Positions 3,852-60,436 of a stretch of DNA of 64,000 nt are shown one piece after another. The position numbers were made by a program, and so were the translations under genes. Positions within the stretch are counted from its first letter, which is position 1, and each line of letters opens with the position of its first letter. The stretch is from Clostridia bacterium (GTDB lineage: Bacteria; Bacillota; Clostridia; TANB77; UBA1234), in assembly GCA_017469545.1 (NCBI GenBank), contig JAFUGE010000008.1, forward strand, positions 30,941-94,940. Reading direction: 5' to 3'. Below the pieces are notes generated by a model. That model ran no database searches. It was not told the DNA's origin and was given only the letters and a program-made list of their open reading frames with translations.

Positions 3852-3877
3852 GTAGGGGCAGCGTATCACGCTGCCCG
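3852..3877. repeat. REP-like element GTAGGGGCAGCGTATCACGCTGCCCG
   Basis: Exact family consensus; 9-bp stem GGGCAGCGT/ACGCTGCCC; between pth and rng. Confidence 0.8.
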
Positions 3878-6327: not shown

Positions 6328-6352
6328 GTAGGGGCAGCGTATCACGCTGCCC
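6328..6352. repeat. REP-like element
   Basis: GTAGGGGCAGCGTATCACGCTGCCC followed by ATTTTG; immediately after rpmA stop. Confidence 0.8.
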
Positions 6353-7729: not shown

Positions 7730-7755
7730 GTAGGGGCAGCGTAATACGCTGCCCG
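7730..7755. repeat. REP-like element GTAGGGGCAGCGTAATACGCTGCCCG
   Basis: Family consensus with AAT loop. Confidence 0.8.
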
Positions 7756-8291: not shown

Positions 8292-8366
8292 GTAGGGGGT
8301 AGCGGAATATGCTGCCTGTTTCTATATCGAAATTTTTTTGCGGGCAGCGTGTTACGCTGCCCCTAC
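8292..8366. repeat. inverted doublet of REP-like elements (BIME-like)
   Basis: Degenerate forward copy GTAGGGGGTAGCGGAATATGCTGCC (8292-8316), 24-bp spacer, reverse copy CGGGCAGCGTGTTACGCTGCCCCTAC (8341-8366). Confidence 0.7.
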
Positions 8367-11124: not shown

Positions 11125-11805
11125 ATGAGAAGAGGAAAGAAATATCAAGATAGCGTTAAAATGATTGATAAGACAGCATCTTATGATTCAAAAGCAGCGC
11201 TAGAATTAATCGAAAAAATGCCAAAGGCTAAATTTGACGAAACTGTTGAAGCTCATTTTAGACTAGGTGTTGATTCAAAACACGCTGATCAACAAGTTAG
11301 AGGCGTTATCGTATTACCTCATGGAACAGGTAAGACACAAAGAGTTTTAGTATTTGCAAAGGGAGAGAAGGCTAAAGAGGCTGAGGCTGCCGGTGCAGAT
11401 TTTGTTGGAGCTGAAGATTTAGTTCCAAGAATTGAGAAAGAGAACTGGTTCGATTACGATGTAATCGTAGCTACACCAGATATGATGGGTATCATTGGTA
11501 GATTAGGTAAAGTTTTAGGACCAAAAGGTTTAATGCCTAACCCAAAATCAGGAACAGTTACAATGGATGTTGCCAAAGCTGTTAGCGAGATTAAATCTGG
11601 TAAGATTGAATATCGTTTAGACAAAAACAACATTATCCATTGCCCAATTGGAAAGCTTTCTTTCGGCGCTGAGAAGTTAAATGATAACTTCCAAGCTTTA
11701 TACGAAGCAATCGTTAAAGCAAAACCAGCTGCTGCAAAGGGACAATACATTAAGAGTATGTCTTTATCAAGCACAATGGGCCCTGGCGTTCCAGTAAAAG
11801 CTTAA
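11125..11805 (+). CDS. rplA: 50S ribosomal protein L1
   Basis: MRRGKKYQ..., position after rplK. Confidence 0.9.
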
Positions 11806-12047
11806 TAACCAAAGACAGTAGGTTGCAAATGTTTGCATAAAATATTCCTACCGAGGTAAAGGATCGGATTTTATCCAAGACATTTATTTCGGTGGAATAG
11901 ATGTCTTGGATTTTTTTGTAGGGGCGGTGTAATACGCCGCCCGCGGGTAGCGTACTACGCTACCCCTACAATGAATTTGGGCGCCCGGAGGGTGACCAAC
12001 GGACAGCCTACCACAATGATGGATTATCAATAAGAGGAGGTGTAAAA
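11806..12047 (+). promoter_or_regulatory. rplJ leader region with hairpins and an embedded REP doublet
   Basis: Hairpin CCAAGACAT...ATGTCTTGG (11877-11910) plus REP doublet 11918-11969, in the position of the L10(L12)4 autoregulatory leader. Confidence 0.3.
11918..11969. repeat. inverted doublet of REP-like elements with compensatory stem variants
   Basis: GTAGGGGCGGTGTAATACGCCGCCCG + CGGGTAGCGTACTACGCTACCCCTAC; each stem carries paired compensatory substitutions relative to consensus. Confidence 0.75.
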
Positions 12048-12551
12048 ATGCCAAACGCAAAAGTTTTAGCGCAAAAGCAAAATGACGTAGCAGCATTAAA
12101 AGAAAAATTCGAAAAATCTAAATTAGTGATTTTAACAGACTATAGAGGAATTAACGTAGCTGATATTACAAAGATTAGAGCTGACTTAAGAAATGCTAAC
12201 TGTGAATATCAAGTTGCGAAAAACTCTACTTTAAAATTTGCTGCAAAAGAAGCAAATTTAGAGGGATTAACAGAAATACTAGAAGGCCCTACAGCTGTCA
12301 CATTTAGCTATGAGGATTACGTAGAGCCAGCAAAAGTTTTATATAACTATGCGAAAGATTCAGAGTTTTATAAAATTAAAGGCGGAGTAATGGATGGTAA
12401 GATTATTTCAGTTGACGAAGTTTTGAAACTTGCAAAACTTCCATCAAGAGAAATGCTACTTACTCAACTTGCTACTGCATTGCTTGCTAATATTAGAAAC
12501 TTAGCTGTTGTTCTTGATCAGACTAGGGAGAAGTTAGAAGAAAATGCATAG
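12048..12551 (+). CDS. rplJ: 50S ribosomal protein L10
   Basis: Typical L10 sequence and position. Confidence 0.9.
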   Translation: MPNAKVLAQKQNDVAALKEKFEKSKLVILTDYRGINVADITKIRADLRNANCEYQVAKNSTLKFAAKEANLEGLTEILEGPTAVTFSYEDYVEPAKVLYNYAKDSEFYKIKGGVMDGKIISVDEVLKLAKLPSREMLLTQLATALLANIRNLAVVLDQTREKLEENA

Positions 12552-13122: not shown

Positions 13123-13158
13123 GTATGGGCAGCGTATTACGCTGCCCGCTTTTTTTAT
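13123..13158 (+). terminator. REP-like hairpin (GTATGGGCAGCGTATTACGCTGCCCG) + T-run as rplL terminator
   Basis: Family hairpin followed by CTTTTTTTAT. Confidence 0.75.
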
Positions 13159-15917: not shown

Positions 15918-15969
15918 GTAGGGGCAGCGTATTACGCTGCCCGCTGGCGGCATGCTATGCCGCCCCTAC
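15918..15969. repeat. REP doublet: consensus copy + variant hairpin GGCGGCATGCTATGCCGCC ending CCCCTAC
   Basis: GTAGGGGCAGCGTATTACGCTGCCCG then CTGGCGGCATGCTATGCCGCCCCTAC; second stem entirely different sequence but same architecture. Confidence 0.75.
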
Positions 15970-18017: not shown

Positions 18018-18043
18018 GTAGGGGCAGCGTAATACGCTGCCCG
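18018..18043. repeat. REP-like element
   Basis: GTAGGGGCAGCGTAATACGCTGCCCG. Confidence 0.8.
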
Positions 18044-22239: not shown

Positions 22240-22265
22240 GTAGGGGCAGCGTACTACGCTGCCCG
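22240..22265. repeat. REP-like element
   Basis: GTAGGGGCAGCGTACTACGCTGCCCG. Confidence 0.8.
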
Positions 22266-22295: not shown

Positions 22296-22895
22296 ATGTT
22301 TGCATATATCAGGGGGACACTAGAGGAAAAAGGAACAGATTTTGTAGTGATTGATGTACAAGGTGTTGGATATAAAATTTTTGCGCCTGCTACGACGATT
22401 CAAAAGTTAGGTGAAATTGGAAATGCTGTGAAAGTTCATACGTATCTTCAAGTAAGGGAAGACGATATGAGTTTGTATGGTTTTTCAAGCAAAGACGAGC
22501 TTAGATTATTTGAATTATTAATTGGGGTTAGTGGAATAGGGGCAAAGTCAGCCAATACGATTTTGGCCAATATTTCGCCTTCTAAGCTTGCTTTGGCAGT
22601 CATTACCAATGATGTGAAAGAATTAACAAAACTTCCAGGAATCGGGGCTAAATCCGCTCAGAGAATGATTTTGGAATTGAAAGATAAATTAAAGACAGAA
22701 GACGCTTTGTTGCAGGCTGACATGGAGACAACGCAAATGATTACTTCTGATAATAATTTGCAGGAAGCAATTTCGGCTTTGCAAGTTTTGGGATATCCTG
22801 CCAAAGATGCTGCTAAGGCTGTCACATCAGTGGATACAACGGGATTAAATGTGGAAGAAATAATCAAACAATCTTTGAAATATTTTGCGAATTAG
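22296..22895 (+). CDS. ruvA: Holliday junction DNA helicase RuvA
   Basis: MFAYIRGTLEEKGTDFVVIDVQGVGYKIF; HhH motifs GIGAKSA. Confidence 0.9.
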   Translation: MFAYIRGTLEEKGTDFVVIDVQGVGYKIFAPATTIQKLGEIGNAVKVHTYLQVREDDMSLYGFSSKDELRLFELLIGVSGIGAKSANTILANISPSKLALAVITNDVKELTKLPGIGAKSAQRMILELKDKLKTEDALLQADMETTQMITSDNNLQEAISALQVLGYPAKDAAKAVTSVDTTGLNVEEIIKQSLKYFAN

Positions 22896-22910
22896 AAAGG
22901 AATTTTTAAC

Positions 22911-24164
22911 ATGGCAAATCAAAATCCTTTGGCGTATCGTATGGCGCCAGAGACAATAGAAGAGTATGTGGGACAAGAACATATTTTATCAAAAGATAAA
23001 ATGCTATATCGATTAATTAAGGCGGATAGATTATCGAGTATTATTTTATGGGGGCCACCTGGCTGCGGCAAGACTTCGCTTGCGAGAGTGATTGCGAAGT
23101 CTACTAAAAATAAATTTGAAAAGCTAAATGCAGTTGCGGCAGGAGTGGCTGACATCAAGAGGATTGTGGACGATGCGAAAAATGTTTTTATGAATCCTTC
23201 GGGAAGAGTCGTTTTATTTATCGACGAGATCCATAGATTTAATAAATTGCAACAAGATGCACTTCTTCCTTATGTGGAAGACGGAACAGTAATTTTAATT
23301 GGTGCGACTACTGAAAATCCGTACTTTTCAGTGAATAAGGCTTTGATTTCGCGTTCTACGGTATTTATGCTTAAACCTCTAACAGAAGCAAATGTGAAGC
23401 AGATTTTAAAAAATGCAATCACGAACAAAGAAAGAGGCCTTGGCAATTATAGTATTAAAATCGAAGAAGAGGTTTTGGATTATATTGCTAATCTTTCTGG
23501 AGGAGATGTGAGAGTCGCCTTAAATTCGCTAGAACTCGCAATTTTAACAACGGATATGAATGCGGATGGATTTATTGAAATTACAAGGGAAGTTGCCAGT
23601 GAATGCATTCAAAAGAAAGTGGCACAGTTTGATAAAGACGGAGATAGCCATTACGATAATATTAGTGCATTTATTAAGTCGATGCGCGGAGGAGACGCAG
23701 ACGCCGTTTTATTCTATTTAGCGAGGGCTTTGTATGCAGGGGAAGACCCCATGTTTTTGGCAAGACGAATTGCTATTTGTGCTTCGGAAGATGTGGGAAT
23801 GGCAAACTCCAATGCACTTGTTGTTGCAAACGCTGCACTTCAAGCTATCCATCAAATCGGTATGCCAGAAGCGAGAATTCTTTTGGCGCACGCTGCGACT
23901 TATGTGGCAAGAAGTCCTAAGTCTAATGCGGCTTATTTGGGAGTTGATAAGGCTTTGCACGACGTAGAAAATATGGATACCGGTACAATTCCAATGCACA
24001 TTCGAAATGCACCTGCAGAGGGAATGGCGAAAGAGGGATATGGCGTGGGATATAAGTATCCGCACGATTTTCCAAACCACGAGGTGGAGCAACAATATTT
24101 GCCAGATAAAATGCTAGGTACAAAGTATTATGTACCAGACGAAACAGAAGAAAAATTGAAATAA
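22911..24164 (+). CDS. rarA: replication-associated recombination protein A (MgsA/RarA AAA ATPase), in the position where ruvB is expected
   Basis: MAPETIEEYVGQEHILSKDKMLYRLIKADRLSSIILWGPPGCGKTSLARVIA matches RarA not RuvB. Confidence 0.8.
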   Translation: MANQNPLAYRMAPETIEEYVGQEHILSKDKMLYRLIKADRLSSIILWGPPGCGKTSLARVIAKSTKNKFEKLNAVAAGVADIKRIVDDAKNVFMNPSGRVVLFIDEIHRFNKLQQDALLPYVEDGTVILIGATTENPYFSVNKALISRSTVFMLKPLTEANVKQILKNAITNKERGLGNYSIKIEEEVLDYIANLSGGDVRVALNSLELAILTTDMNADGFIEITREVASECIQKKVAQFDKDGDSHYDNISAFIKSMRGGDADAVLFYLARALYAGEDPMFLARRIAICASEDVGMANSNALVVANAALQAIHQIGMPEARILLAHAATYVARSPKSNAAYLGVDKALHDVENMDTGTIPMHIRNAPAEGMAKEGYGVGYKYPHDFPNHEVEQQYLPDKMLGTKYYVPDETEEKLK

Positions 24165-24258: not shown

Positions 24259-24597
24259 ATGGTTTATGTGATTGGACTTGCCGGAGGAATTGTTGGAGGC
24301 CTTTTTGGAGCAGGAAGCGGTATGATTATTTTACCAGCGATGGTAACTTTGTTAAAAGAAGACGAATACAAGGCAAGAGGTACGACTTTATTGATTGTGC
24401 TTGTCATTACTTTAACGAGCGCCTTCTTTTATTATAAAAATGATTTTTTTGATTTTGGTTCCGCCATTCAAACTGCAATTGGTGGCACAATCGGAGGTTT
24501 TTTAGGAGCGAAATTTATGAAAAAAATTCCTAAATTTTGGCTATCAATTATCTTTTATGCGTTTATGATTTTGGTGGCAATTAGAATGCTCTTGTAG
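24259..24597 (+). CDS. TSUP (TauE/SafE, DUF81) family transporter, 4-TM half-size protein
   Basis: GLAGGIVGGLFGAGSGMIILPAM motif; 112 aa. Confidence 0.55.
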   Translation: MVYVIGLAGGIVGGLFGAGSGMIILPAMVTLLKEDEYKARGTTLLIVLVITLTSAFFYYKNDFFDFGSAIQTAIGGTIGGFLGAKFMKKIPKFWLSIIFYAFMILVAIRMLL

Positions 24598-24627: not shown

Positions 24628-24987
24628 ATGCTAATCTTAACAGGAATGGTATCTGGAATCATTTCGGGCATGGGAATGGGTGGAGGAACGATTTTAATCA
24701 TTATCTTAACGAATATTTTTAAAGTGGAACAGCATATCGCACAGGCAAACAATTTAATATTCTTTATTCCAACTTCCATTGCAGCAATCTATGTTCATTC
24801 GAAAAATAAAAATATGGATAAAAAAATAGTAATGAAAATGCTTCCAACGGGGATTATAGGAGCTATGATTGGCGCTTCAATTTCGGCTAAGATGGAGGGA
24901 GAAAATTTAAAAAAATTTTTTGGAATATTTTTGCTGTGTATTGGTGTGTATGAAATCGTCATAACAGTAAAGAATAAGAAAAGATAA
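24628..24987 (+). CDS. TSUP family transporter, second 4-TM half-size protein
   Basis: GMVSGIISGMGMGGGTILIIIL motif; own RBS AGGAGG; 119 aa. Confidence 0.55.
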   Translation: MLILTGMVSGIISGMGMGGGTILIIILTNIFKVEQHIAQANNLIFFIPTSIAAIYVHSKNKNMDKKIVMKMLPTGIIGAMIGASISAKMEGENLKKFFGIFLLCIGVYEIVITVKNKKR

Positions 24988-25037
24988 AATTGGAGGGACA
25001 GCAAATCATGCTGCCCAAAATTGAAAGGAGAATGAAT

Positions 25038-25181
25038 ATGAAAAATTTGGTAACAGGTATGTTGATAGGAGCAGTTATTGGTGGAATGGTAGGCACAGTC
25101 GCTAGCGACGAGATATATGACATGAAGAAAAAAATAATGAAAAATGGCAAGAAATTCATGAGAAAGTGCAACATCATATAA
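25038..25181 (+). CDS. small membrane protein, hypothetical
   Basis: 47-aa ORF MKNLVTGMLIGAVIGGMVGTV with AAGGAG RBS; tracked longer ORF reads through a degenerate REP copy (24995-25016). Confidence 0.25.
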   Translation: MKNLVTGMLIGAVIGGMVGTVASDEIYDMKKKIMKNGKKFMRKCNII

Positions 25182-25203
25182 CAACGATATTGATAATAGG
25201 AAG

Positions 25204-25231
25204 TTGCATTTTTCTGAAAATGTGTTATAAT
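25204..25231 (+). promoter_or_regulatory. candidate promoter for the large ncRNA
   Basis: TTGCAT, 16-bp spacer, TGT-TATAAT extended -10. Confidence 0.4.
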
Positions 25232-25237
25232 AACAAG

Positions 25238-25810
25238 TAGTGGTGTGCTATTCTAGTGATTGCTATGGATTGCGAGGACGGGCCTAAAAATCCGTTGAAA
25301 GGGCATATCGATGAAGTTCTTTAGTTTGGCTCGCGACGCCCAGTCGAGGGTCTCTCTAGGGAGTAAGGTTTAAGGGCGATCTGCAATGGCATGTAGGCGT
25401 TGACCCTTCTACCGTGGAGACACTTCAGTGCGAGCAAAATTTCGCCTGAAGTGATAAACCTGCAAGGCTAATATATTTTGCAAAAAATATTCGTTAGTAC
25501 ACAGTGTAGCTTTCCTTGAGTGAGAATGGCGAATTGCAAATGAAACCATTGTTGCAAAAGAGGATAAACAATCATTTTAGCGATACCGAGGAAATCTCCT
25601 AGAGCATTCTATTAAGAGATGCATTGAGGATTGAAGTGTGGACTAAGTGGTAATCTAGGCTCTTTACCGGCGACGTAAAGATGCTGCCTTTAAAGGGAAA
25701 CCGCTAAGATGGCGATATCTTAGGAGGCAGTAGGGAAATCCTTCTAGACCTAAGCCGCAAAATTTACTTGATGCATTGCCACTACTATTTTTTTAAAATA
25801 ATTGATGGAG
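25238..25810 (+). ncRNA. ole: candidate OLE (ornate large extremophilic) RNA
   Basis: ~575-nt non-coding, stop-rich, GC-enriched structured region immediately upstream of a small 4-TM protein gene, near spoIIIA; assignment by context and size only. Confidence 0.4.
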
Positions 25811-25814
25811 ATTG

Positions 25815-25840
25815 CGGGCAGCGTGGTACGCTGCCCCTAC
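25815..25840. repeat. REP-like element, reverse orientation
   Basis: CGGGCAGCGTGGTACGCTGCCCCTAC. Confidence 0.8.
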
Positions 25841-25875
25841 ACAATATTTTGAATACAGTATGAAAGGTGAGAAAG

Positions 25876-26415
25876 ATGTCAAATAAAACGGAGCAAAATG
25901 TACATAACCATTGGCTAGTAAAAGTGTTTTTTATTACTTTTATTTTGTCATTGATATTTAATTATTTGTCCACGGAAGTGGTGGAGAGTGTTAGTATCGT
26001 TACGTCCATCATTATATTAATTGTTGTAATTTTGATAGGAATTCTATTTGATTTGGTGGCGACTGCCGTTACGGCGGCAGACGAAGCGCCGTTTCATGCA
26101 AAAGCTTCTGATAAAAAGAAAGGGGCAAAGCAATCGGTTAAATTAGTGAAGAATGCAGATAAAGTTTCTAATTTTTGTGCAGACGTTGTCGGAGATATTT
26201 GTGGAATATTAAGTGGAGCGACAAGTGCACTTGTATCAGTAAATTTAAGTAATGCGTTGGGACTTAGTAATATCACGATTGTGACAATGTTAGTGACAGC
26301 AACAGTGACGGCACTAACGGTTTTAGGAAAGGCCTTAGCAAAACACATTGCGATTGATAAGGCAGAAGAAATTATTACGACGCTTGGAAAAGTAATGGCT
26401 GTATTTTCTAAATAA
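25876..26415 (+). CDS. small 4-TM membrane protein, candidate OLE-associated protein OapA
   Basis: 180 aa, predicted 4 TM helices, immediately downstream of the candidate OLE RNA. Confidence 0.4.
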   Translation: MSNKTEQNVHNHWLVKVFFITFILSLIFNYLSTEVVESVSIVTSIIILIVVILIGILFDLVATAVTAADEAPFHAKASDKKKGAKQSVKLVKNADKVSNFCADVVGDICGILSGATSALVSVNLSNALGLSNITIVTMLVTATVTALTVLGKALAKHIAIDKAEEIITTLGKVMAVFSK

Positions 26416-26498
26416 ATATATTTTTGAAAAAATTACATAGAATCATCCTTATTTGTCAATAATAGTAATATGAAATTGACGAATAAAGGGTGATTTTT

Positions 26499-27173
26499 TT
26501 GTATAGAAAAATAATAATTTTTGGTTTAATATTTTTGAATATTTGTCTTGTGGCGAGCGTTTATTTGGTTAACCATGATCCTTCTACAGAGGAAGTATTA
26601 TCTAGATATGGTTCGAGCGGCAGTGAAGTGAGAGAAATTCAAACAAGGCTAAAACGATGGGGATATTATAATGGGGCTATTGACGGAATTTATGGAAGCC
26701 AAACGGTAAATGCAGTCAAATATTTTCAAAGGAAAAATGGACTAACAGCAGATGGAATTGCAGGCAGCAAAACGCTTGCAGCAATGGGGATTGCAGGTTC
26801 CAATAAAGCTTCTAGTAATAATCAATCCAATTTGAATTTGTTGGCACATGCAGTTTATGGAGAGGCTAGAGGAGAACCATACGAAGGAATGGTAGCGGTG
26901 GCAGCAGTTATTCTAAATAGAGTGAGAAGTTCGAATTTTCCAAGTACAGTTGCAGGTGTGATTTATCAGCCAGGCGCCTTCACGGCGGTAAGCGATGGAC
27001 AGATTAATCTAGAACCGAATCAGGCTGCCTACAAAGCTGCACAAGACGCCTTAAATGGTTGGGACCCAAGTGGGGGAGCAATCTATTATTTTAATCCTAA
27101 TACAGCAACAAACAAGTGGATATGGTCAAGACCACTGACTGTTGTAATCGGAAAACATCGTTTCTGTAAATAG
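26499..27173 (+). CDS. sleB: spore cortex-lytic enzyme SleB-like (PG-binding domain + hydrolase_2 domain)
   Basis: SEVREIQTRLKRWGYYNGAIDGIYGSQTVNAVKYFQRKNGLTADGIAG then NLLAHAVYGEARGEPYEGMVAVAAVILNRV. Confidence 0.7.
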   Translation: MYRKIIIFGLIFLNICLVASVYLVNHDPSTEEVLSRYGSSGSEVREIQTRLKRWGYYNGAIDGIYGSQTVNAVKYFQRKNGLTADGIAGSKTLAAMGIAGSNKASSNNQSNLNLLAHAVYGEARGEPYEGMVAVAAVILNRVRSSNFPSTVAGVIYQPGAFTAVSDGQINLEPNQAAYKAAQDALNGWDPSGGAIYYFNPNTATNKWIWSRPLTVVIGKHRFCK

Positions 27174-27294: not shown

Positions 27295-28203
27295 GTGTAT
27301 GAGAAAATATATGCTGAAATTCTTTCTTTTTTTCCTTCTTCGCTAAGTGAAATTGTTAATCTCAATAAAAATATTTGGAATACTGCTGAGGAAATACGAG
27401 TGCGTCTTGGACAAGCAATTTGTATTAGGCAAAGTTCGGAAGAAATATTTTTAAGCAAAGTTGTTAATCAGGAAGATATGCTTCGACTTTTAGAAAATTT
27501 TTCGAACAACTCTATTTATAGTGTGCAATCTGAGCTCAATAATGGCTTTATTACACTAAAAGGCGGGCATAGAGTTGGAGTAGCGGGAACGAGTATTTTA
27601 GAAGATGGTAAAGTGAAAAATATTAAATACATTTCAAGTTTGAACATAAGGATTGCACGAGAAATGAAAGGTTCTAGTTTGAATGTTATGAAATACATAT
27701 TAGATAAAAATAACTTTTCGAATACGCTTATTATTTCTCCTCCCGGCTGTGGAAAGACAACAATGTTGAGAGATATAGTTAGGTGCCTAAGTAATGGATT
27801 TGAAGGATTTAAAGGAAACAATATTGGGCTCGTCGACGAACGTAGCGAAATTGCTGCGATGTATAAAGGTGTTCCACAAAACGATGTCGGAATTCGAACG
27901 GATGTTATGAATAATTGTGTTAAGCATATTGGAATGAATATGCTGATTAGAAGTATGGGGCCACAAATCATTGCCACAGACGAGATTGGCGGGAAAGACG
28001 ACGAGGAAGCGATTAGAAGAGCAACATATTCCGGTATCAAGCTTTTACTAACAGCCCATGGAGACGATATTCAAGATATTTCGAAAGACATTATGGAGAA
28101 AAAGATTTTTAAGAATGTAGTTGTTTTAACGAGAAACAATAGGCCTGGCGAAATAAAAAATGTCTACAAATTGAAGGAGGATCAATATGTTGCTTACTGT
28201 TAA
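27295..28203 (+). CDS. spoIIIAA: stage III sporulation protein AA (ATPase)
   Basis: Walker A LIISPPGCGKTTMLRD; GTG start. Confidence 0.85.
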   Translation: MYEKIYAEILSFFPSSLSEIVNLNKNIWNTAEEIRVRLGQAICIRQSSEEIFLSKVVNQEDMLRLLENFSNNSIYSVQSELNNGFITLKGGHRVGVAGTSILEDGKVKNIKYISSLNIRIAREMKGSSLNVMKYILDKNNFSNTLIISPPGCGKTTMLRDIVRCLSNGFEGFKGNNIGLVDERSEIAAMYKGVPQNDVGIRTDVMNNCVKHIGMNMLIRSMGPQIIATDEIGGKDDEEAIRRATYSGIKLLLTAHGDDIQDISKDIMEKKIFKNVVVLTRNNRPGEIKNVYKLKEDQYVAYC

Positions 28204-28723: not shown

Positions 28724-28918
28724 ATGGAAGTTCAATTATTGTTTAAGATTGCTGCGATTGGAATTTTGGTAGCCGTGCTGCACCAAGTGCTAGTAAAAGC
28801 AGGGAGAGAAGACCAGGCAATGATGACGACGCTAACAGGATTGGTAATCGTTTTAGCAATGGTAGTAAAGGAAATTAGCAACTTGTTCAACACCGTAAAA
28901 ACACTGTTCAACCTGTAA
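28724..28918 (+). CDS. spoIIIAC: stage III sporulation protein AC
   Basis: 64 aa, two TM helices, MEVQLLFKIAAIGILVAVLHQVL. Confidence 0.8.
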   Translation: MEVQLLFKIAAIGILVAVLHQVLVKAGREDQAMMTTLTGLVIVLAMVVKEISNLFNTVKTLFNL

Positions 28919-29080
28919 ATGATGCAATTTCGGGGTGGCAGAAAAGTGCGCAAGCTGGGAAAAACTGGGAGGATGCGCATTTTCGGCGACGCCGAAAATG
29001 CGCGTTCTGGCAGAAAATGGAAAGATGCGCGTTTTCGGGGTGGCAGAAAATGTAGCATCATTTATGATAGGAGAATGCAT
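28919..29080 (+). repeat. repeat-rich 162-bp insert between spoIIIAC and spoIIIAD
   Basis: GGCAGAAAA(G/T)G three times, GATGCGC(A/G)TTTTCGG twice, perfect palindrome GCGCATTTTCGGCG/CGCCGAAAATGCGC at 28972-29002. Confidence 0.55.
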
Positions 29081-29467
29081 ATGGAGATTGTGCAAATCAT
29101 TGGGATTGCTTTTGTGGCGACATTTATTGTCGTTTTATTAAGGCAGTACAAGCCAGAATATACCATACATATTTCGATTATCGCTGGGATTATTATTTTC
29201 GGATTAGTTGTTTTTAAACTTTCTGCCATAATAGAACTTTTACAAACGTTATCAAACAAACTAGGTGTGAATGCAAAATTCTTTGCAATATTAATAAAGA
29301 TTACAGGCATTGCATATCTGTCTGAATTTGCGGTTAATATTTGCAAAGATTCTGGAGAAAGTGCAATCGCTGCCAAGGTGGAGCTAGGTTCTAAAATTTT
29401 AATTGTTAGTATGTCTATTCCCATTTTAGGGGCACTATTAGATACAATGGCAAGTATTCTACCATAA
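29081..29467 (+). CDS. spoIIIAD: stage III sporulation protein AD
   Basis: MEIVQIIGIAFVATFIVVLLRQYKPEY; the tracked 182-aa ORF N-extension through the repeat insert is spurious. Confidence 0.8.
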   Translation: MEIVQIIGIAFVATFIVVLLRQYKPEYTIHISIIAGIIIFGLVVFKLSAIIELLQTLSNKLGVNAKFFAILIKITGIAYLSEFAVNICKDSGESAIAAKVELGSKILIVSMSIPILGALLDTMASILP

Positions 29468-39857: not shown

Positions 39858-39883
39858 GTAGGGGCAGCGTATCACGCTGCCCG
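39858..39883. repeat. REP-like element (exact consensus)
   Basis: GTAGGGGCAGCGTATCACGCTGCCCG. Confidence 0.8.
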
Positions 39884-41473: not shown

Positions 41474-41600
41474 TAGGAAAAGTGTATTGTGTGGGCGGCT
41501 TAACAAGCCGCCCATAAATTGCCTCTTGACAAATATGTGTTTGGGCGTTAAACTATGAATTGCAAGGAAATGTAAAGGTATGAAAGGAGTGAGATACGAT

Positions 41601-45671: not shown

Positions 45672-45700
45672 GTAGGGGCAGCGTAATACGCTGCCCTTTT
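45672..45700 (+). terminator. REP-like hairpin + TTTT
   Basis: GTAGGGGCAGCGTAATACGCTGCCC followed by TTTT. Confidence 0.7.
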
Positions 45701-47526: not shown

Positions 47527-47559
47527 TTTAGGGTCAGCGTGATACGCTGACCCTAAAAT
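47527..47559. repeat. REP-like variant, fully symmetric (TTTTAGGGTCAGCGTGATACGCTGACCCTAAAA)
   Basis: Compensatory GGGTCAGCGT/ACGCTGACCC stem; sits between convergent genes. Confidence 0.7.
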
Positions 47560-55823: not shown

Positions 55824-56576
55824 ATGTTAAATCAATTTTCAAGAACAGAATTGTTGATAGGTAAAGAGGCATTAGAGAAACTAAGTAATGCAAAGGTTGC
55901 CGTTGTTGGAATCGGAGGAGTTGGCTCTTATGTAGTGGAGGGCTTGGTCCGCGCTGGAGTAGGAAATTTTGTGTTAGTGGACGACGATAAGGTTTGCCTT
56001 ACGAATTTAAATAGACAGCTAATTGCTACGAGGAAGACGGTTGGAAAGTATAAAGTGGAAATGGCAAAGGAAAGAATTTTAGAGATAAATCCAAAGGCGA
56101 ATGTGGAAACTTTTCAGGAATTTTTCTTGCCGGAGACCGAAGGAATTATTGACGAGAGTGTGGATTACATTGTGGATGCGGTGGATACCGTTACGGCAAA
56201 AATCGAACTTGTGATGAGAGCGAATAAGCTTCATATTCCGATTATTTCTTGTATGGGTACGGGCAACAAATTAGACCCTACCAGATTTGAGGTAACAGAT
56301 ATTTTTAAAACAAGTGTATGTCCACTTGCTAAAGTAATGCGAAAGGAATTAAGGACGAGAGGAATCAAGCATTTAAAAGTGTTGTATTCCAAAGAGGAAC
56401 CGATAAAACCTGACGAGACTTTGGAATGCAGCTGTAAGACGGGCTGTATCTGCCCTCCTGGAACGGTCAGAAAATGTACGCAGAGAAACCAAGTGCCGGG
56501 AAGTATTTCTTTTGTGCCATCCGTTGCCGGATTAATCATTAGTGGCGAAGTAATTAAAGATATTATCAATCTGTAG
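55824..56576 (+). CDS. tcdA: tRNA threonylcarbamoyladenosine dehydratase (TcdA/CsdL, ThiF/MoeB family), copy 1
   Basis: Rossmann VAVVGIGGVGSYVVEGLVRAGVGNFVLVDDDKVCLTNLNRQ; stop codon TAG lies inside GTAG of the following REP. Confidence 0.75.
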   Translation: MLNQFSRTELLIGKEALEKLSNAKVAVVGIGGVGSYVVEGLVRAGVGNFVLVDDDKVCLTNLNRQLIATRKTVGKYKVEMAKERILEINPKANVETFQEFFLPETEGIIDESVDYIVDAVDTVTAKIELVMRANKLHIPIISCMGTGNKLDPTRFEVTDIFKTSVCPLAKVMRKELRTRGIKHLKVLYSKEEPIKPDETLECSCKTGCICPPGTVRKCTQRNQVPGSISFVPSVAGLIISGEVIKDIINL

Positions 56577-56598
56577 GGTCAGCGTAGCACGCTGACCG
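56573..56598. repeat. REP-like variant GTAGGGTCAGCGTAGCACGCTGACCG
   Basis: Compensatory GGGTCAGCGT/ACGCTGACC stem; overlaps tcdA-1 stop. Confidence 0.75.
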
Positions 56599-57507: not shown

Positions 57508-57533
57508 TGTAGGGGCAGCGTATCACGCTGCCC
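57508..57533. repeat. REP-like element (exact consensus)
   Basis: GTAGGGGCAGCGTATCACGCTGCCCG. Confidence 0.8.
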
Positions 57534-59661: not shown

Positions 59662-60414
59662 ATGTTAAATCAGTTTTCAAGAACAGAATTATTAATAGGC
59701 AAAGAAGCCTTAGATAAATTAAGTAATGCAAAAGTAGCTGTTATAGGAATTGGAGGAGTCGGCTCTTATGTGGTTGAAGGGTTGGTAAGAGCGGGAGTTG
59801 GCAATTTCGTTTTAGTTGATGATGATAAAGTTTGTTTGACTAATTTAAATAGACAGCTTATTGCTACAAGAAAAACAGTTGGAAAATATAAAGTTGAAAT
59901 AGCGAAGGAAAGAATTTTAGAAATCAATCCAAAAGCTAATGTAGAAATTTATCAAGAGTTTTTCTTGCCAGAGACACAAGGCATCATTGATGAAAGTGTT
60001 GATTACATAGTGGACTGTGTTGATACAGTTACTGCAAAAATTGATCTTGTGATGAGAGCAGATAAGCTAAACATACCAATTATTTCTTGCATGGGAACAG
60101 GCAATAAACTAGACCCAACAAGATTTGAAGTTACTGATGTTTTTAAGACTAGTGTTTGCCCGCTTGCTAAAGTGATGCGAAAAGAATTAAGAGCAAGAGG
60201 TATCAAACATTTAAAAGTGCTATATTCAAAAGAGGAGCCAATAAAGCCAGATGAAACACTGGAATGTAGTTGCAAAACAGGCTGTATATGCCCACCAGGT
60301 ACGGTAAGAAAATGTACACAGAGAAATCAAGTGCCAGGAAGTATTTCGTTCGTACCTTCTGTTGCTGGATTAATTATTGCTGGCGAAGTTATAAAAGATA
60401 TCATAAAAATGTAG
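59662..60414 (+). CDS. tcdA: tRNA threonylcarbamoyladenosine dehydratase (TcdA/CsdL), copy 2
   Basis: ~95% aa identical to copy 1 but many synonymous nucleotide differences; stop TAG inside following REP. Confidence 0.75.
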   Translation: MLNQFSRTELLIGKEALDKLSNAKVAVIGIGGVGSYVVEGLVRAGVGNFVLVDDDKVCLTNLNRQLIATRKTVGKYKVEIAKERILEINPKANVEIYQEFFLPETQGIIDESVDYIVDCVDTVTAKIDLVMRADKLNIPIISCMGTGNKLDPTRFEVTDVFKTSVCPLAKVMRKELRARGIKHLKVLYSKEEPIKPDETLECSCKTGCICPPGTVRKCTQRNQVPGSISFVPSVAGLIIAGEVIKDIIKM

Positions 60415-60436
60415 GGGCAGCGTATCACGCTGCCCG
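60411..60436. repeat. REP-like element (exact consensus) overlapping tcdA-2 stop
   Basis: GTAGGGGCAGCGTATCACGCTGCCCG. Confidence 0.8.

Follow-up and report, generated by a model that had tools for sequence, protein, structure and literature searches.

The window analysed here, a stretch of 64,000 nucleotides (nt) from a Clostridia bacterium (contig JAFUGE010000008.1 of assembly GCA_017469545.1, positions 30,941 to 94,940), contains a pair of neighbouring genes on its plus strand. The first (25237-25785, numbered from the first letter of the window) encodes an OLE (ornate, large, extremophilic) RNA and the second (25876-26415) its membrane partner OapA, an assignment to which we give a probability of about 96%. 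OLE RNAs are among the largest and most conserved non-coding RNAs of bacteria; their biochemical function is still unknown, and a recent proposal holds that OLE spans the membrane as an RNA dimer. The original prediction had inferred the family from size and context, proposing a structured non-coding RNA of about 575 nt with the small four-helix membrane protein OapA directly downstream, and this reasoning proved sound when the Rfam covariance search that it had proposed was carried out. The locus belongs to a known class and represents another member of the OLE family in a short-stem form, not a new kind of element.

The whole window was scanned against Rfam 15 and yielded two matches above the gathering thresholds. 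One of them is OLE (RF01071) at 25224-25798 on the plus strand with 414.3 bits (gathering score 50, E-value 2.8e-118), which spans positions 1-616 of the 616 in the model and is not truncated. The Rfam consensus structure was then transferred to the window, and the helices P1, P2, P3 and P3.1, which are unpaired in the Rfam structure line, were added by hand. Canonical or G-U pairs are found at 120 of the 136 pairs of the Rfam model and at all 26 hand-assigned pairs of P1 to P3.1, i.e. at 146/162. The minimum free energy fold, in which P1 and the 3' domain were recovered, has a z-score of -3.85 relative to shuffled sequences. For the analysis of covariation, six clade sequences were aligned, namely the window and its five closest relatives. 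In this alignment 89.4% of the pair cells are standard-paired, compared to 37-47% when the 3' partners were slid by 1-3 columns, and changes on both sides occur in 59 of the 162 pairs, a level that was reached by none of 500 shuffles. The compensatory changes are located in P1, P3, P3.1, P4, P6.1, P9, P12, P13 and P14, and because they maintain the helices, the OLE fold is under selection in the lineage of the window. The region was also correctly described as GC-enriched and devoid of a credible open reading frame (ORF): the GC content is 0.40-0.46 over 25200-25800, compared to 0.31-0.35 just upstream and 0.24-0.38 within and after oapA, and the single ORF of at least 40 amino acids overlapping 25238-25810 comprises 46 amino acids on the minus strand (25409-25549).

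The protein encoded by the second gene (179 amino acids, 19 kDa) shows four hydrophobic segments at residues ~13-33, 40-66, 100-122 and 131-151, and its AlphaFold2 model (mean predicted local distance difference test score, pLDDT, of 80.5) contains long helices at 5-38, 41-67, 94-128 and 133-161. An OapA family exists neither in Pfam nor in NCBIfam, hence the protein was judged by literature criteria instead. It matches the Pfam family CNNM (PF01595) with 27.8 bits at a cutoff of 28.4, accompanied by a very weak match to PRK11573, and the Pfam/NCBIfam domain search found no CBS or CorC_HlyC domain. Such a sub-threshold CNNM similarity ('next closest cluster') has been described for OapA, and the DxxxD motif is absent from true CNNM domains (PMC11332333). 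The window protein carries DVVGD at residues 103-107, with D103, G106 and D107 conserved without exception in 22 homologues. The loop between the second and third transmembrane (TM) helices is basic (K76, K80, K81, K82, K85, K89, K92, K96) and includes the residues F73, H74, A75, A77, K80, G83 and K85 that are invariant in the 22-sequence alignment; a conserved positive cluster on the cytoplasmic loop of OapA has been proposed to contact the RNA (PMC12265935). A further criterion for OapA is that the conserved proline of CNNM is lacking; the sole proline of the window protein, P72, is situated in the same loop and is replaced by glutamate in 6/22 homologues. A profile search of the PDB by sequence returned chance-level matches to LolE and CoaBC only and was discarded; the fold search was informative instead. 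The six best Foldseek matches in the PDB are MtCorB (7M1T/7M1U) and the transmembrane domain of CorC (7CFG/7CFF), with query-normalised TM-scores of 0.46-0.59 for these six and ~0.58 to MtCorB, and 7M1U is also the top match published for OapA of Halalkalibacterium (formerly Bacillus) halodurans (PMC11332333). Hence, as far as sequence and modelled fold can tell, the product of this gene displays every OapA hallmark that was tested, i.e. weak CNNM similarity, DxxxD motif, four TM helices, basic loop and CorB-like fold, in agreement with the identity that had been proposed for it.

The association of the two genes is widespread. The database search revealed more than 1100 OapA homologues of about 180 amino acids, and 80 loci encoding such homologues were fetched from one-genome-per-species data and searched by nhmmer with the window RNA as query. 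In 79/80 loci, oapA is preceded on its own strand by an OLE-like sequence, which usually ends a few tens of nt before the start codon, and all of the 12 loci tested with Rfam carry OLE (380-543 bits). Directly upstream of oapA is also the position in the window, as had been claimed; here the 3' end of P1 at 25785 is followed by the ATG of oapA at 25876. In four loci (L011, L023, L042, L070) the OLE-like sequence is not adjacent to oapA and lies 1.8-5.8 kb upstream, and in L043 no such sequence was found within 6 kb upstream of oapA. Several of these five records are labelled Bacilli, Bacteroidaceae or Muribaculaceae, so binning errors are possible. The closest reference genomes belong to uncultured Clostridia sampled from the guts of animals and humans, with OapA identities of 59-68%, the best match among GTDB representatives being 65-68%. 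Exact copies of the OapA sequence were found in metagenome assemblies only, such as ENA XIEF21-1_SAMN15829995 scaffold_47 (265 kb), which represents a near-identical strain, and the ole-oapA locus is 100% identical in other assemblies.

Table 1. Features of the ole-oapA locus and sites of the repetitive extragenic palindrome (REP)-like element in the window; the promoter-like site and the U7 run were read from the sequence.
Feature	Position	Strand	Details
Promoter-like site	25204-25231	+	-35 box TTGCAT 25204-25209, 16-nt spacer, extended -10 box TGtTATAAT 25223-25231
OLE RNA gene	25237-25785	+	P1 5' strand to P1 3' strand, 549 nt; RF01071 match
P3 and P3.1, 5' strands	25259-25265 (P3), 25268-25272 (P3.1)	+	Partners 25578-25584 and 25569-25573; hand-assigned
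P4 hairpin	25277-25296	+	A-rich loop CCUAAAAA; aligned to the Rfam consensus; 3 stem pairs covary
J4a/5 k-turn nucleotides AUAUCGAUGAAG, P5/P5.1, P6/P6.1, J6/7	25301-25420	+	Rfam consensus alignment
P7 hairpin, shortened	25421-25453	+	cmscan alignment with deletions in model positions 204-241
P8 hairpin	25460-25504	+	AU-rich extension containing GCAA; 16-nt insertion relative to the Rfam model
P9, truncated	25513-25564	+	Basal stems kept; loop CGAAUUGCAAAUGAAA (25530-25545) replaces the distal ~50 nt (P9.2/P9.3, GGCC kissing loop)
P13 hairpin	25661-25681	+	GCGA (GNRA) tetraloop 25670-25673; one-nt 5' bulge two base pairs below the loop
P14.1 hairpin	25703-25724	+	Second GCGA tetraloop 25712-25715; stem near-invariant in the clade
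U7 run	25788-25794	+	Directly 3' of the P1 3' strand
REP-like palindrome	25814-25841	+	GC-GGGCAGCG-TGGTA-CGCTGCCCC-TACA; between ole and oapA
oapA	25876-26415	+	ATG 25876, ribosome-binding site AGGTGA 25864-25869; 179 amino acids, 18.96 kDa
REP sites 1-8	598-619, 3855-3876, 6331-6352, 7733-7755, 8342-8363, 13126-13148, 15921-15943, 18021-18043		
REP sites 9-16	22243-22265, 25816-25837, 39861-39882, 45675-45697, 47532-47553, 56576-56597, 57512-57533, 60414-60435		

The anatomy of the RNA (Table 1) can be compared with sites for which contacts have been reported elsewhere. P3 and P3.1 together form 12 base pairs (bp), all of them canonical and six with compensatory changes among the relatives; the same 12-bp figure is given in PMC12265935, where this helix has been proposed to span the membrane. 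The P4 loop, a dimerisation contact in the cryo-electron microscopy (cryo-EM) models (PMC12265935), is identical in the window and L002-L004 and is changed at its first base in L001. The stretch from J4a/5 to J6/7 corresponds to the region of the OapC-binding k-turn and of the P5.1/P6.1 kissing loops (PMC9723947, PMC12286853). Here the P5.1 loop reads GCCCA (25338-25342), the P6.1 loop AUGGCA (25386-25391) and J6/7 GUGGAGA; both AUAUCGAUGAAG and J6/7 match the Rfam consensus as primary sequences, and J5/6 is one nt shorter, as it is in L001-L004. The loops of P4, P5.1 and P6.1 are intact with regard to their nucleotides. The geometry of P13, with the bulged U498 and a GUGA loop, is the OapB determinant of H. 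halodurans OLE (PMC7936274), and the window matches it with a P13 of the sequence UCUUUA[C]CG-GCGA-CGUAAAGA. P14.1 has been described as a secondary, weak OapB site (PMC7936274).

The most specific feature of the window RNA is the length of its internal stems. Segment lengths of P7, P8 and P9 were measured with a MAFFT alignment of 71 near-full-length OLE RNAs (the window and 70 others); a motif-anchored measurement was dropped, because it parsed only 30/80 loci. The P7 segment comprises 34 nt, compared to a median of 53.5 in the 70 other RNAs, and the P9 segment with 32 nt is the shortest of all 71 (median 77), whereas the P8 segment with 38 nt exceeds the median of 25 and surpasses that of L001-L004 by 8 nt. 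Only 4 nt stand in place of 50 distal P9 model positions in the cmscan alignment. The canonical P9 ends in a (U/C)GGCC(A/G) loop, and this palindromic L9.3 loop accounts for bridge B3, a symmetric kissing contact of the cryo-EM dimer (PMC12286853). Since P7 and especially P9 are truncated, a P9.3 GGCC kissing bridge of the Clostridium acetobutylicum type presumably cannot form here. Besides the window, 18 other RNAs among the 71 have no GGCC in P9. This feature excludes the window from the full-length OLE class, which has a long P9 and an L9.3 loop with GGCC, GAUC or AGCU, not from the OLE family, and the short-stem architecture is common to the relatives with 59-68% OapA identity. Among the short-P9 RNAs, the GNRA tip of P13 is kept in the window, L001-L004 and L010 and lost in L019, L026, L029, L030, L033 and L054. 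Many long-P9 RNAs in the sample also have no GNRA tip at P13, hence loss of P9 does not strictly go along with loss of the OapB site. Judged by this architecture, the clade of the window is intermediate between full-length and so-called variant 1 OLE, a detail within the known variation.

The 16-nt loop that replaces the distal P9 contains the palindrome UUGCAA (core UGCA). The idea that the short P9 arms share a palindromic loop was rejected, as no consistent palindrome recurs in the terminal loops predicted for L001-L004 and L010. Provided that the RNA is still able to dimerise, either bridge B3 would be dispensable for OLE function or UUGCAA would form a new, much shorter symmetric kissing contact. 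We consider it rather unlikely that the window harbours such a naturally minimised OLE, in which the distal P9 arch and its GGCC loop were lost and the P13 tip was kept with one of these two consequences for dimerisation; the substitute UUGCAA kissing loop in particular is speculation and finds no support among the relatives.

With regard to transcription, a good promoter had been claimed in front of the RNA. The TTGCAT-16-TATAAT arrangement is indeed present and its -10 box is extended, but the -35 box falls short of the claim, and extended -10 promoter is a better label than a 'good' -35/-10 pair. The -10 box ends 5 nt upstream of P1, and transcription of OLE is predicted to start at about 25237-25240 with the first nucleotides of this helix. 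At the equivalent place just 5' of P1, the relatives L001-L003 and L010 have TTGAAA/TTGCAA-17-TAATAT/TATCAT/TATAAT boxes, and these comparable boxes suggest a primary OLE transcript starting at P1 and not one processed from a long operon transcript. Downstream of P1, the U7 run may play a role in termination; U-rich tails also occur in the relatives and in the 3' flank of the Rfam consensus. The consensus scan reported no plus-strand terminator in 24900-26600, and no convincing separate promoter for oapA was found in 25786-25875. Read-through of the OLE transcript, from which oapA would probably be translated, is therefore the simplest model.

The most likely mechanism can be modelled on better studied organisms. 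The extended -10 promoter of ole itself would drive transcription from the first nucleotides of P1 onwards, and the RNA would fold into the conserved two-domain architecture. Dimers of OapA would bind the RNA and tether it to the cytoplasmic membrane, two small RNA-binding proteins might be added, OapB to the GNRA tetraloop and bulge of P13 and OapC to the k-turn next to P5, and the resulting ribonucleoprotein might help the cell to cope with stresses. The binding of OapA (cooperative, 2:1), OapB and OapC, the membrane localisation, the stress phenotypes and the dimerisation are extrapolated from experiments with H. halodurans and with Clostridium RNAs.

Several points weigh against this interpretation of the locus. 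The Rfam score falls short of that of canonical OLE RNAs (520-543 bits) by ~100-130 bits, which can be attributed to the shortened P7 and P9, and the GGCC loop that makes the P9.3 dimer bridge was not found in the P9 of the window but is present in the P9 of 52/71 RNAs. The -35 box TTGCAT is weak, matching TTGACA at 3/6 positions, for which reason the promoter consensus scan did not list the site. The transcript ends and the co-transcription of oapA are predicted from the nucleotide sequence, and all functional statements, a high abundance of the RNA included, are extrapolated from distant species. Finally, no gene for OapB or OapC stood out among the small ORFs of the window, which were read by eye over the 64 kb and not rigorously searched; in the model organism these genes (ybzG/oapB for a KOW protein, ybxF/oapC for a member of the L7Ae family) are unlinked, and the retained P13 tetraloop would predict an oapB elsewhere in the genome.

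The low score, the shortest P9 among the 71 RNAs and the mobile REP-like element inserted between ole and oapA could alternatively be taken as signs of decay, with the region being a non-functional OLE remnant and the short P7 and P9 a result of erosion. This explanation is extremely improbable, because the conserved single-stranded motifs are intact, compensatory substitutions keep the helices across the clade in addition to the high share of pairs that form, and the oapA reading frame is intact with all invariant residues. Moreover, relatives at 59-68% OapA identity share the short-stem form, which must have been kept over a long divergence, and short P7-P9 forms are a recognised and widespread variant. 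Equally little speaks for a purely cis-acting RNA, a long 5' leader that controls oapA and has no stable-RNA function of its own. The position directly upstream on the same strand, the lack of a convincing separate oapA promoter in the spacer and the short distance of only ~20-45 nt in the relatives, which makes co-transcription likely, would all fit a leader. However, the OLE RNA of the model organism is stable, highly abundant and membrane-localised and binds OapA, OapB and OapC (PMC12265935, PMC9723947), the loci in which ole is separated from oapA by kilobases speak against an obligatory leader, and about 550 nt with some 20 helices go far beyond any known leader.

It could also be asked whether the downstream protein is a stand-alone Mg2+ transporter domain of the CNNM/MpfA type, a chance neighbour instead of the RNA-binding OapA, since CNNM is its best Pfam match and the Mg2+ transporters CorB and CorC rank first in the structural comparison. 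This is again highly implausible: with 179 amino acids the protein consists of the transmembrane part only and has neither the CBS pair nor the CorC_HlyC domain that every MpfA-family member possesses, the OapA-specific DxxxD motif and basic loop are present, the CNNM score does not reach the gathering threshold, a behaviour known for OapA from the literature, and OLE precedes 79 of the 80 homologues. A transporter-like activity of OapA besides RNA binding is conceivable and has been proposed in the literature.

The pair is embedded in a long series of genes on the plus strand. The order is mutS, mutL, miaA, two unassigned genes, a gene with a DivIVA domain, cyclophilin, ruvA, rarA, two half-size TauE genes, a 47-amino acid glycine-zipper ORF, ole, oapA, sleB, spoIIIAA-AH, a gene for an SH3 protein, polA, an ABC/FtsX pair, a two-component system and znuABC. 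The original prediction had also invoked synteny with the spoIIIA region. The spoIIIA operon does start close by, with spoIIIAA at 27295, 880 nt past the oapA stop and with sleB in between, but the sleB-spoIIIA adjacency occurs in only 3/80 loci (L001, L002, L004; sleB in 4/80, including L003), and the nusB/xseAB/ispA/dxs cluster of the Bacillus type was not found in the annotated flanks of ~13-53 kb, the ends at 0-13 and 53-64 kb being not fully annotated. Genes for sporulation, cell wall and DNA repair, as found here, are among the categories that have been reported around ole. OLE hosts are members of the Bacillota, typically anaerobic or extremophilic, and an endospore-forming host of this phylum is supported by sleB and spoIIIAA-AH together with the closest genomes from uncultured Clostridia.

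Some further observations concern this neighbourhood. The TauE/SafE-family transporter is encoded by two half-size ORFs (24259-24597 and 24628-24987) in swapped order, the first covering positions 130-237 and the second positions 1-109 of the Pfam profile; the same pair occurs in L026, and instead of a broken gene the two ORFs may represent a heterodimeric half-transporter. At 22296-24164, ruvA is directly followed by an AAA+ gene of the rarA/mgsA type (MgsA_C, 207 bits) and not by ruvB. The only other Rfam match in the window is an L10 leader (RF00557, 51.9 bits, 11791-11918), which lies upstream of ORFs at 12048 (presumably rplJ) and 12737 (L7/L12-like sequence).

A copy of a repeat between the RNA and the protein gene had likewise been predicted, and it belongs to a family with the consensus GC-GGGCAGCG-N5/6-CGCTGCCCC-TACA, of which 16 sites were found in the window and 0 are expected by chance. 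All sites are intergenic, mostly just past the 3' ends of genes, and 12 of them share one orientation while 4 have the opposite one. Because most copies have no adjacent U-run on the strand of the gene, they do not look like ordinary intrinsic terminators. The copy between ole and oapA forms a hairpin with a 9-bp GC-rich stem (local fold -22.6 kcal/mol) and is not a canonical intrinsic terminator either, since there is no U-run next to it at 25814-25841; it may stabilise the 3' end or form a partial barrier. No REP element is present in the ole-oapA spacer of L001-L004 and L010, and its insertion explains why the spacer comprises 90 nt in the window compared to ~20-45 nt in the relatives. Two independent short-read contigs of the same species (L082, L083) start exactly at 25814. 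Further repeats were noted in the window. A second type of GC-rich hairpin, GGCGGCATAGCATGCCGCC, occurs at 15946-15964 and 41494-41512, the former being followed by CCTACA and adjoining a copy of the main REP element. Between spoIIIAC and spoIIIAD, a palindromic insert of ~150 nt (28916-29064) that resembles a miniature inverted-repeat transposable element consists of two 52-nt tandem units (73% identical) with 26-nt inverted arms, is bracketed by the perfect 10-nt inverted repeat TAAATGATGC/GCATCATTTA and artificially lengthens the N-terminus of the mechanically called spoIIIAD ORF (28919-29467).

Another OLE member from uncultured Clostridia leaves the general picture of this RNA unchanged. 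However, natural deletion variants reveal which parts of OLE are dispensable, and in the window RNA, which has the shortest P9 of 71 and has lost one dimer bridge, the OapB site, the 12 bp of P3/P3.1 and the loops of the other bridges are retained. With this combination it is a compact candidate construct for structural and dimerisation studies, and its interest, which is modest, lies chiefly in being a natural minimal-P9 variant.

Compared to the OLE RNA of H. halodurans (RF01071; Puerta-Fernandez 2006, Block 2011, PMC7936274, PMC9723947), the window shares the core sequences, the helices P1-P6 and P10-P15, the P13 GNRA tetraloop with a one-nt bulge, the k-turn nucleotides beside P5 and the position of oapA immediately downstream. 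It differs by its much shorter P7 and P9, by the neighbours ruvA-rarA-tauE upstream and sleB-spoIIIA downstream, and by the REP-like hairpin that separates ole from oapA. Moreover, ole of the window appears to have its own promoter at P1, whereas the H. halodurans RNA is processed from a long polycistronic transcript. The OLE RNAs of C. acetobutylicum and C. botulinum, known as cryo-EM dimers (PMC12286853, PMC12265935), come from the same class Clostridia and agree with the window in the 12 bp of P3 and P3.1, in the A-rich loop of P4 and in the loops of P5.1 and P6.1; these loops serve as dimer bridges and match the consensus in the window. In contrast to them, the window has no distal P9 (the P9.2/P9.3 'arch') and no GGCC bridge B3, and carries the 16-nt UUGCAA loop instead.

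On the protein side, OapA of the window has the CNNM-type transmembrane fold in common with MpfA, CorB and CorC, as indicated by the TM-score to MtCorB and the PF01595 match, and is distinguished from them by the absence of the CBS pair and CorC_HlyC, by four instead of three TM helices, by the DxxxD motif and by its coupling to OLE; an anticorrelation between OLE and MpfA has been reported. The closest parallel among RNAs with short stems is variant 1 OLE, which has shorter P7, P8 and P9, often misses the P13 tip and is commonest in the TANB77 clade (PMC11332333, Fernando & Breaker 2024). Both have a short P7 and P9 and occur in uncultured Clostridia known from metagenomes. Compared by its published description and not by the model or cutoffs of its authors, variant 1 differs from the window RNA, in which P8 is not shortened (38 nt versus a median of 25 nt) and the P13 tip is kept, and the host of the window carries sporulation genes.

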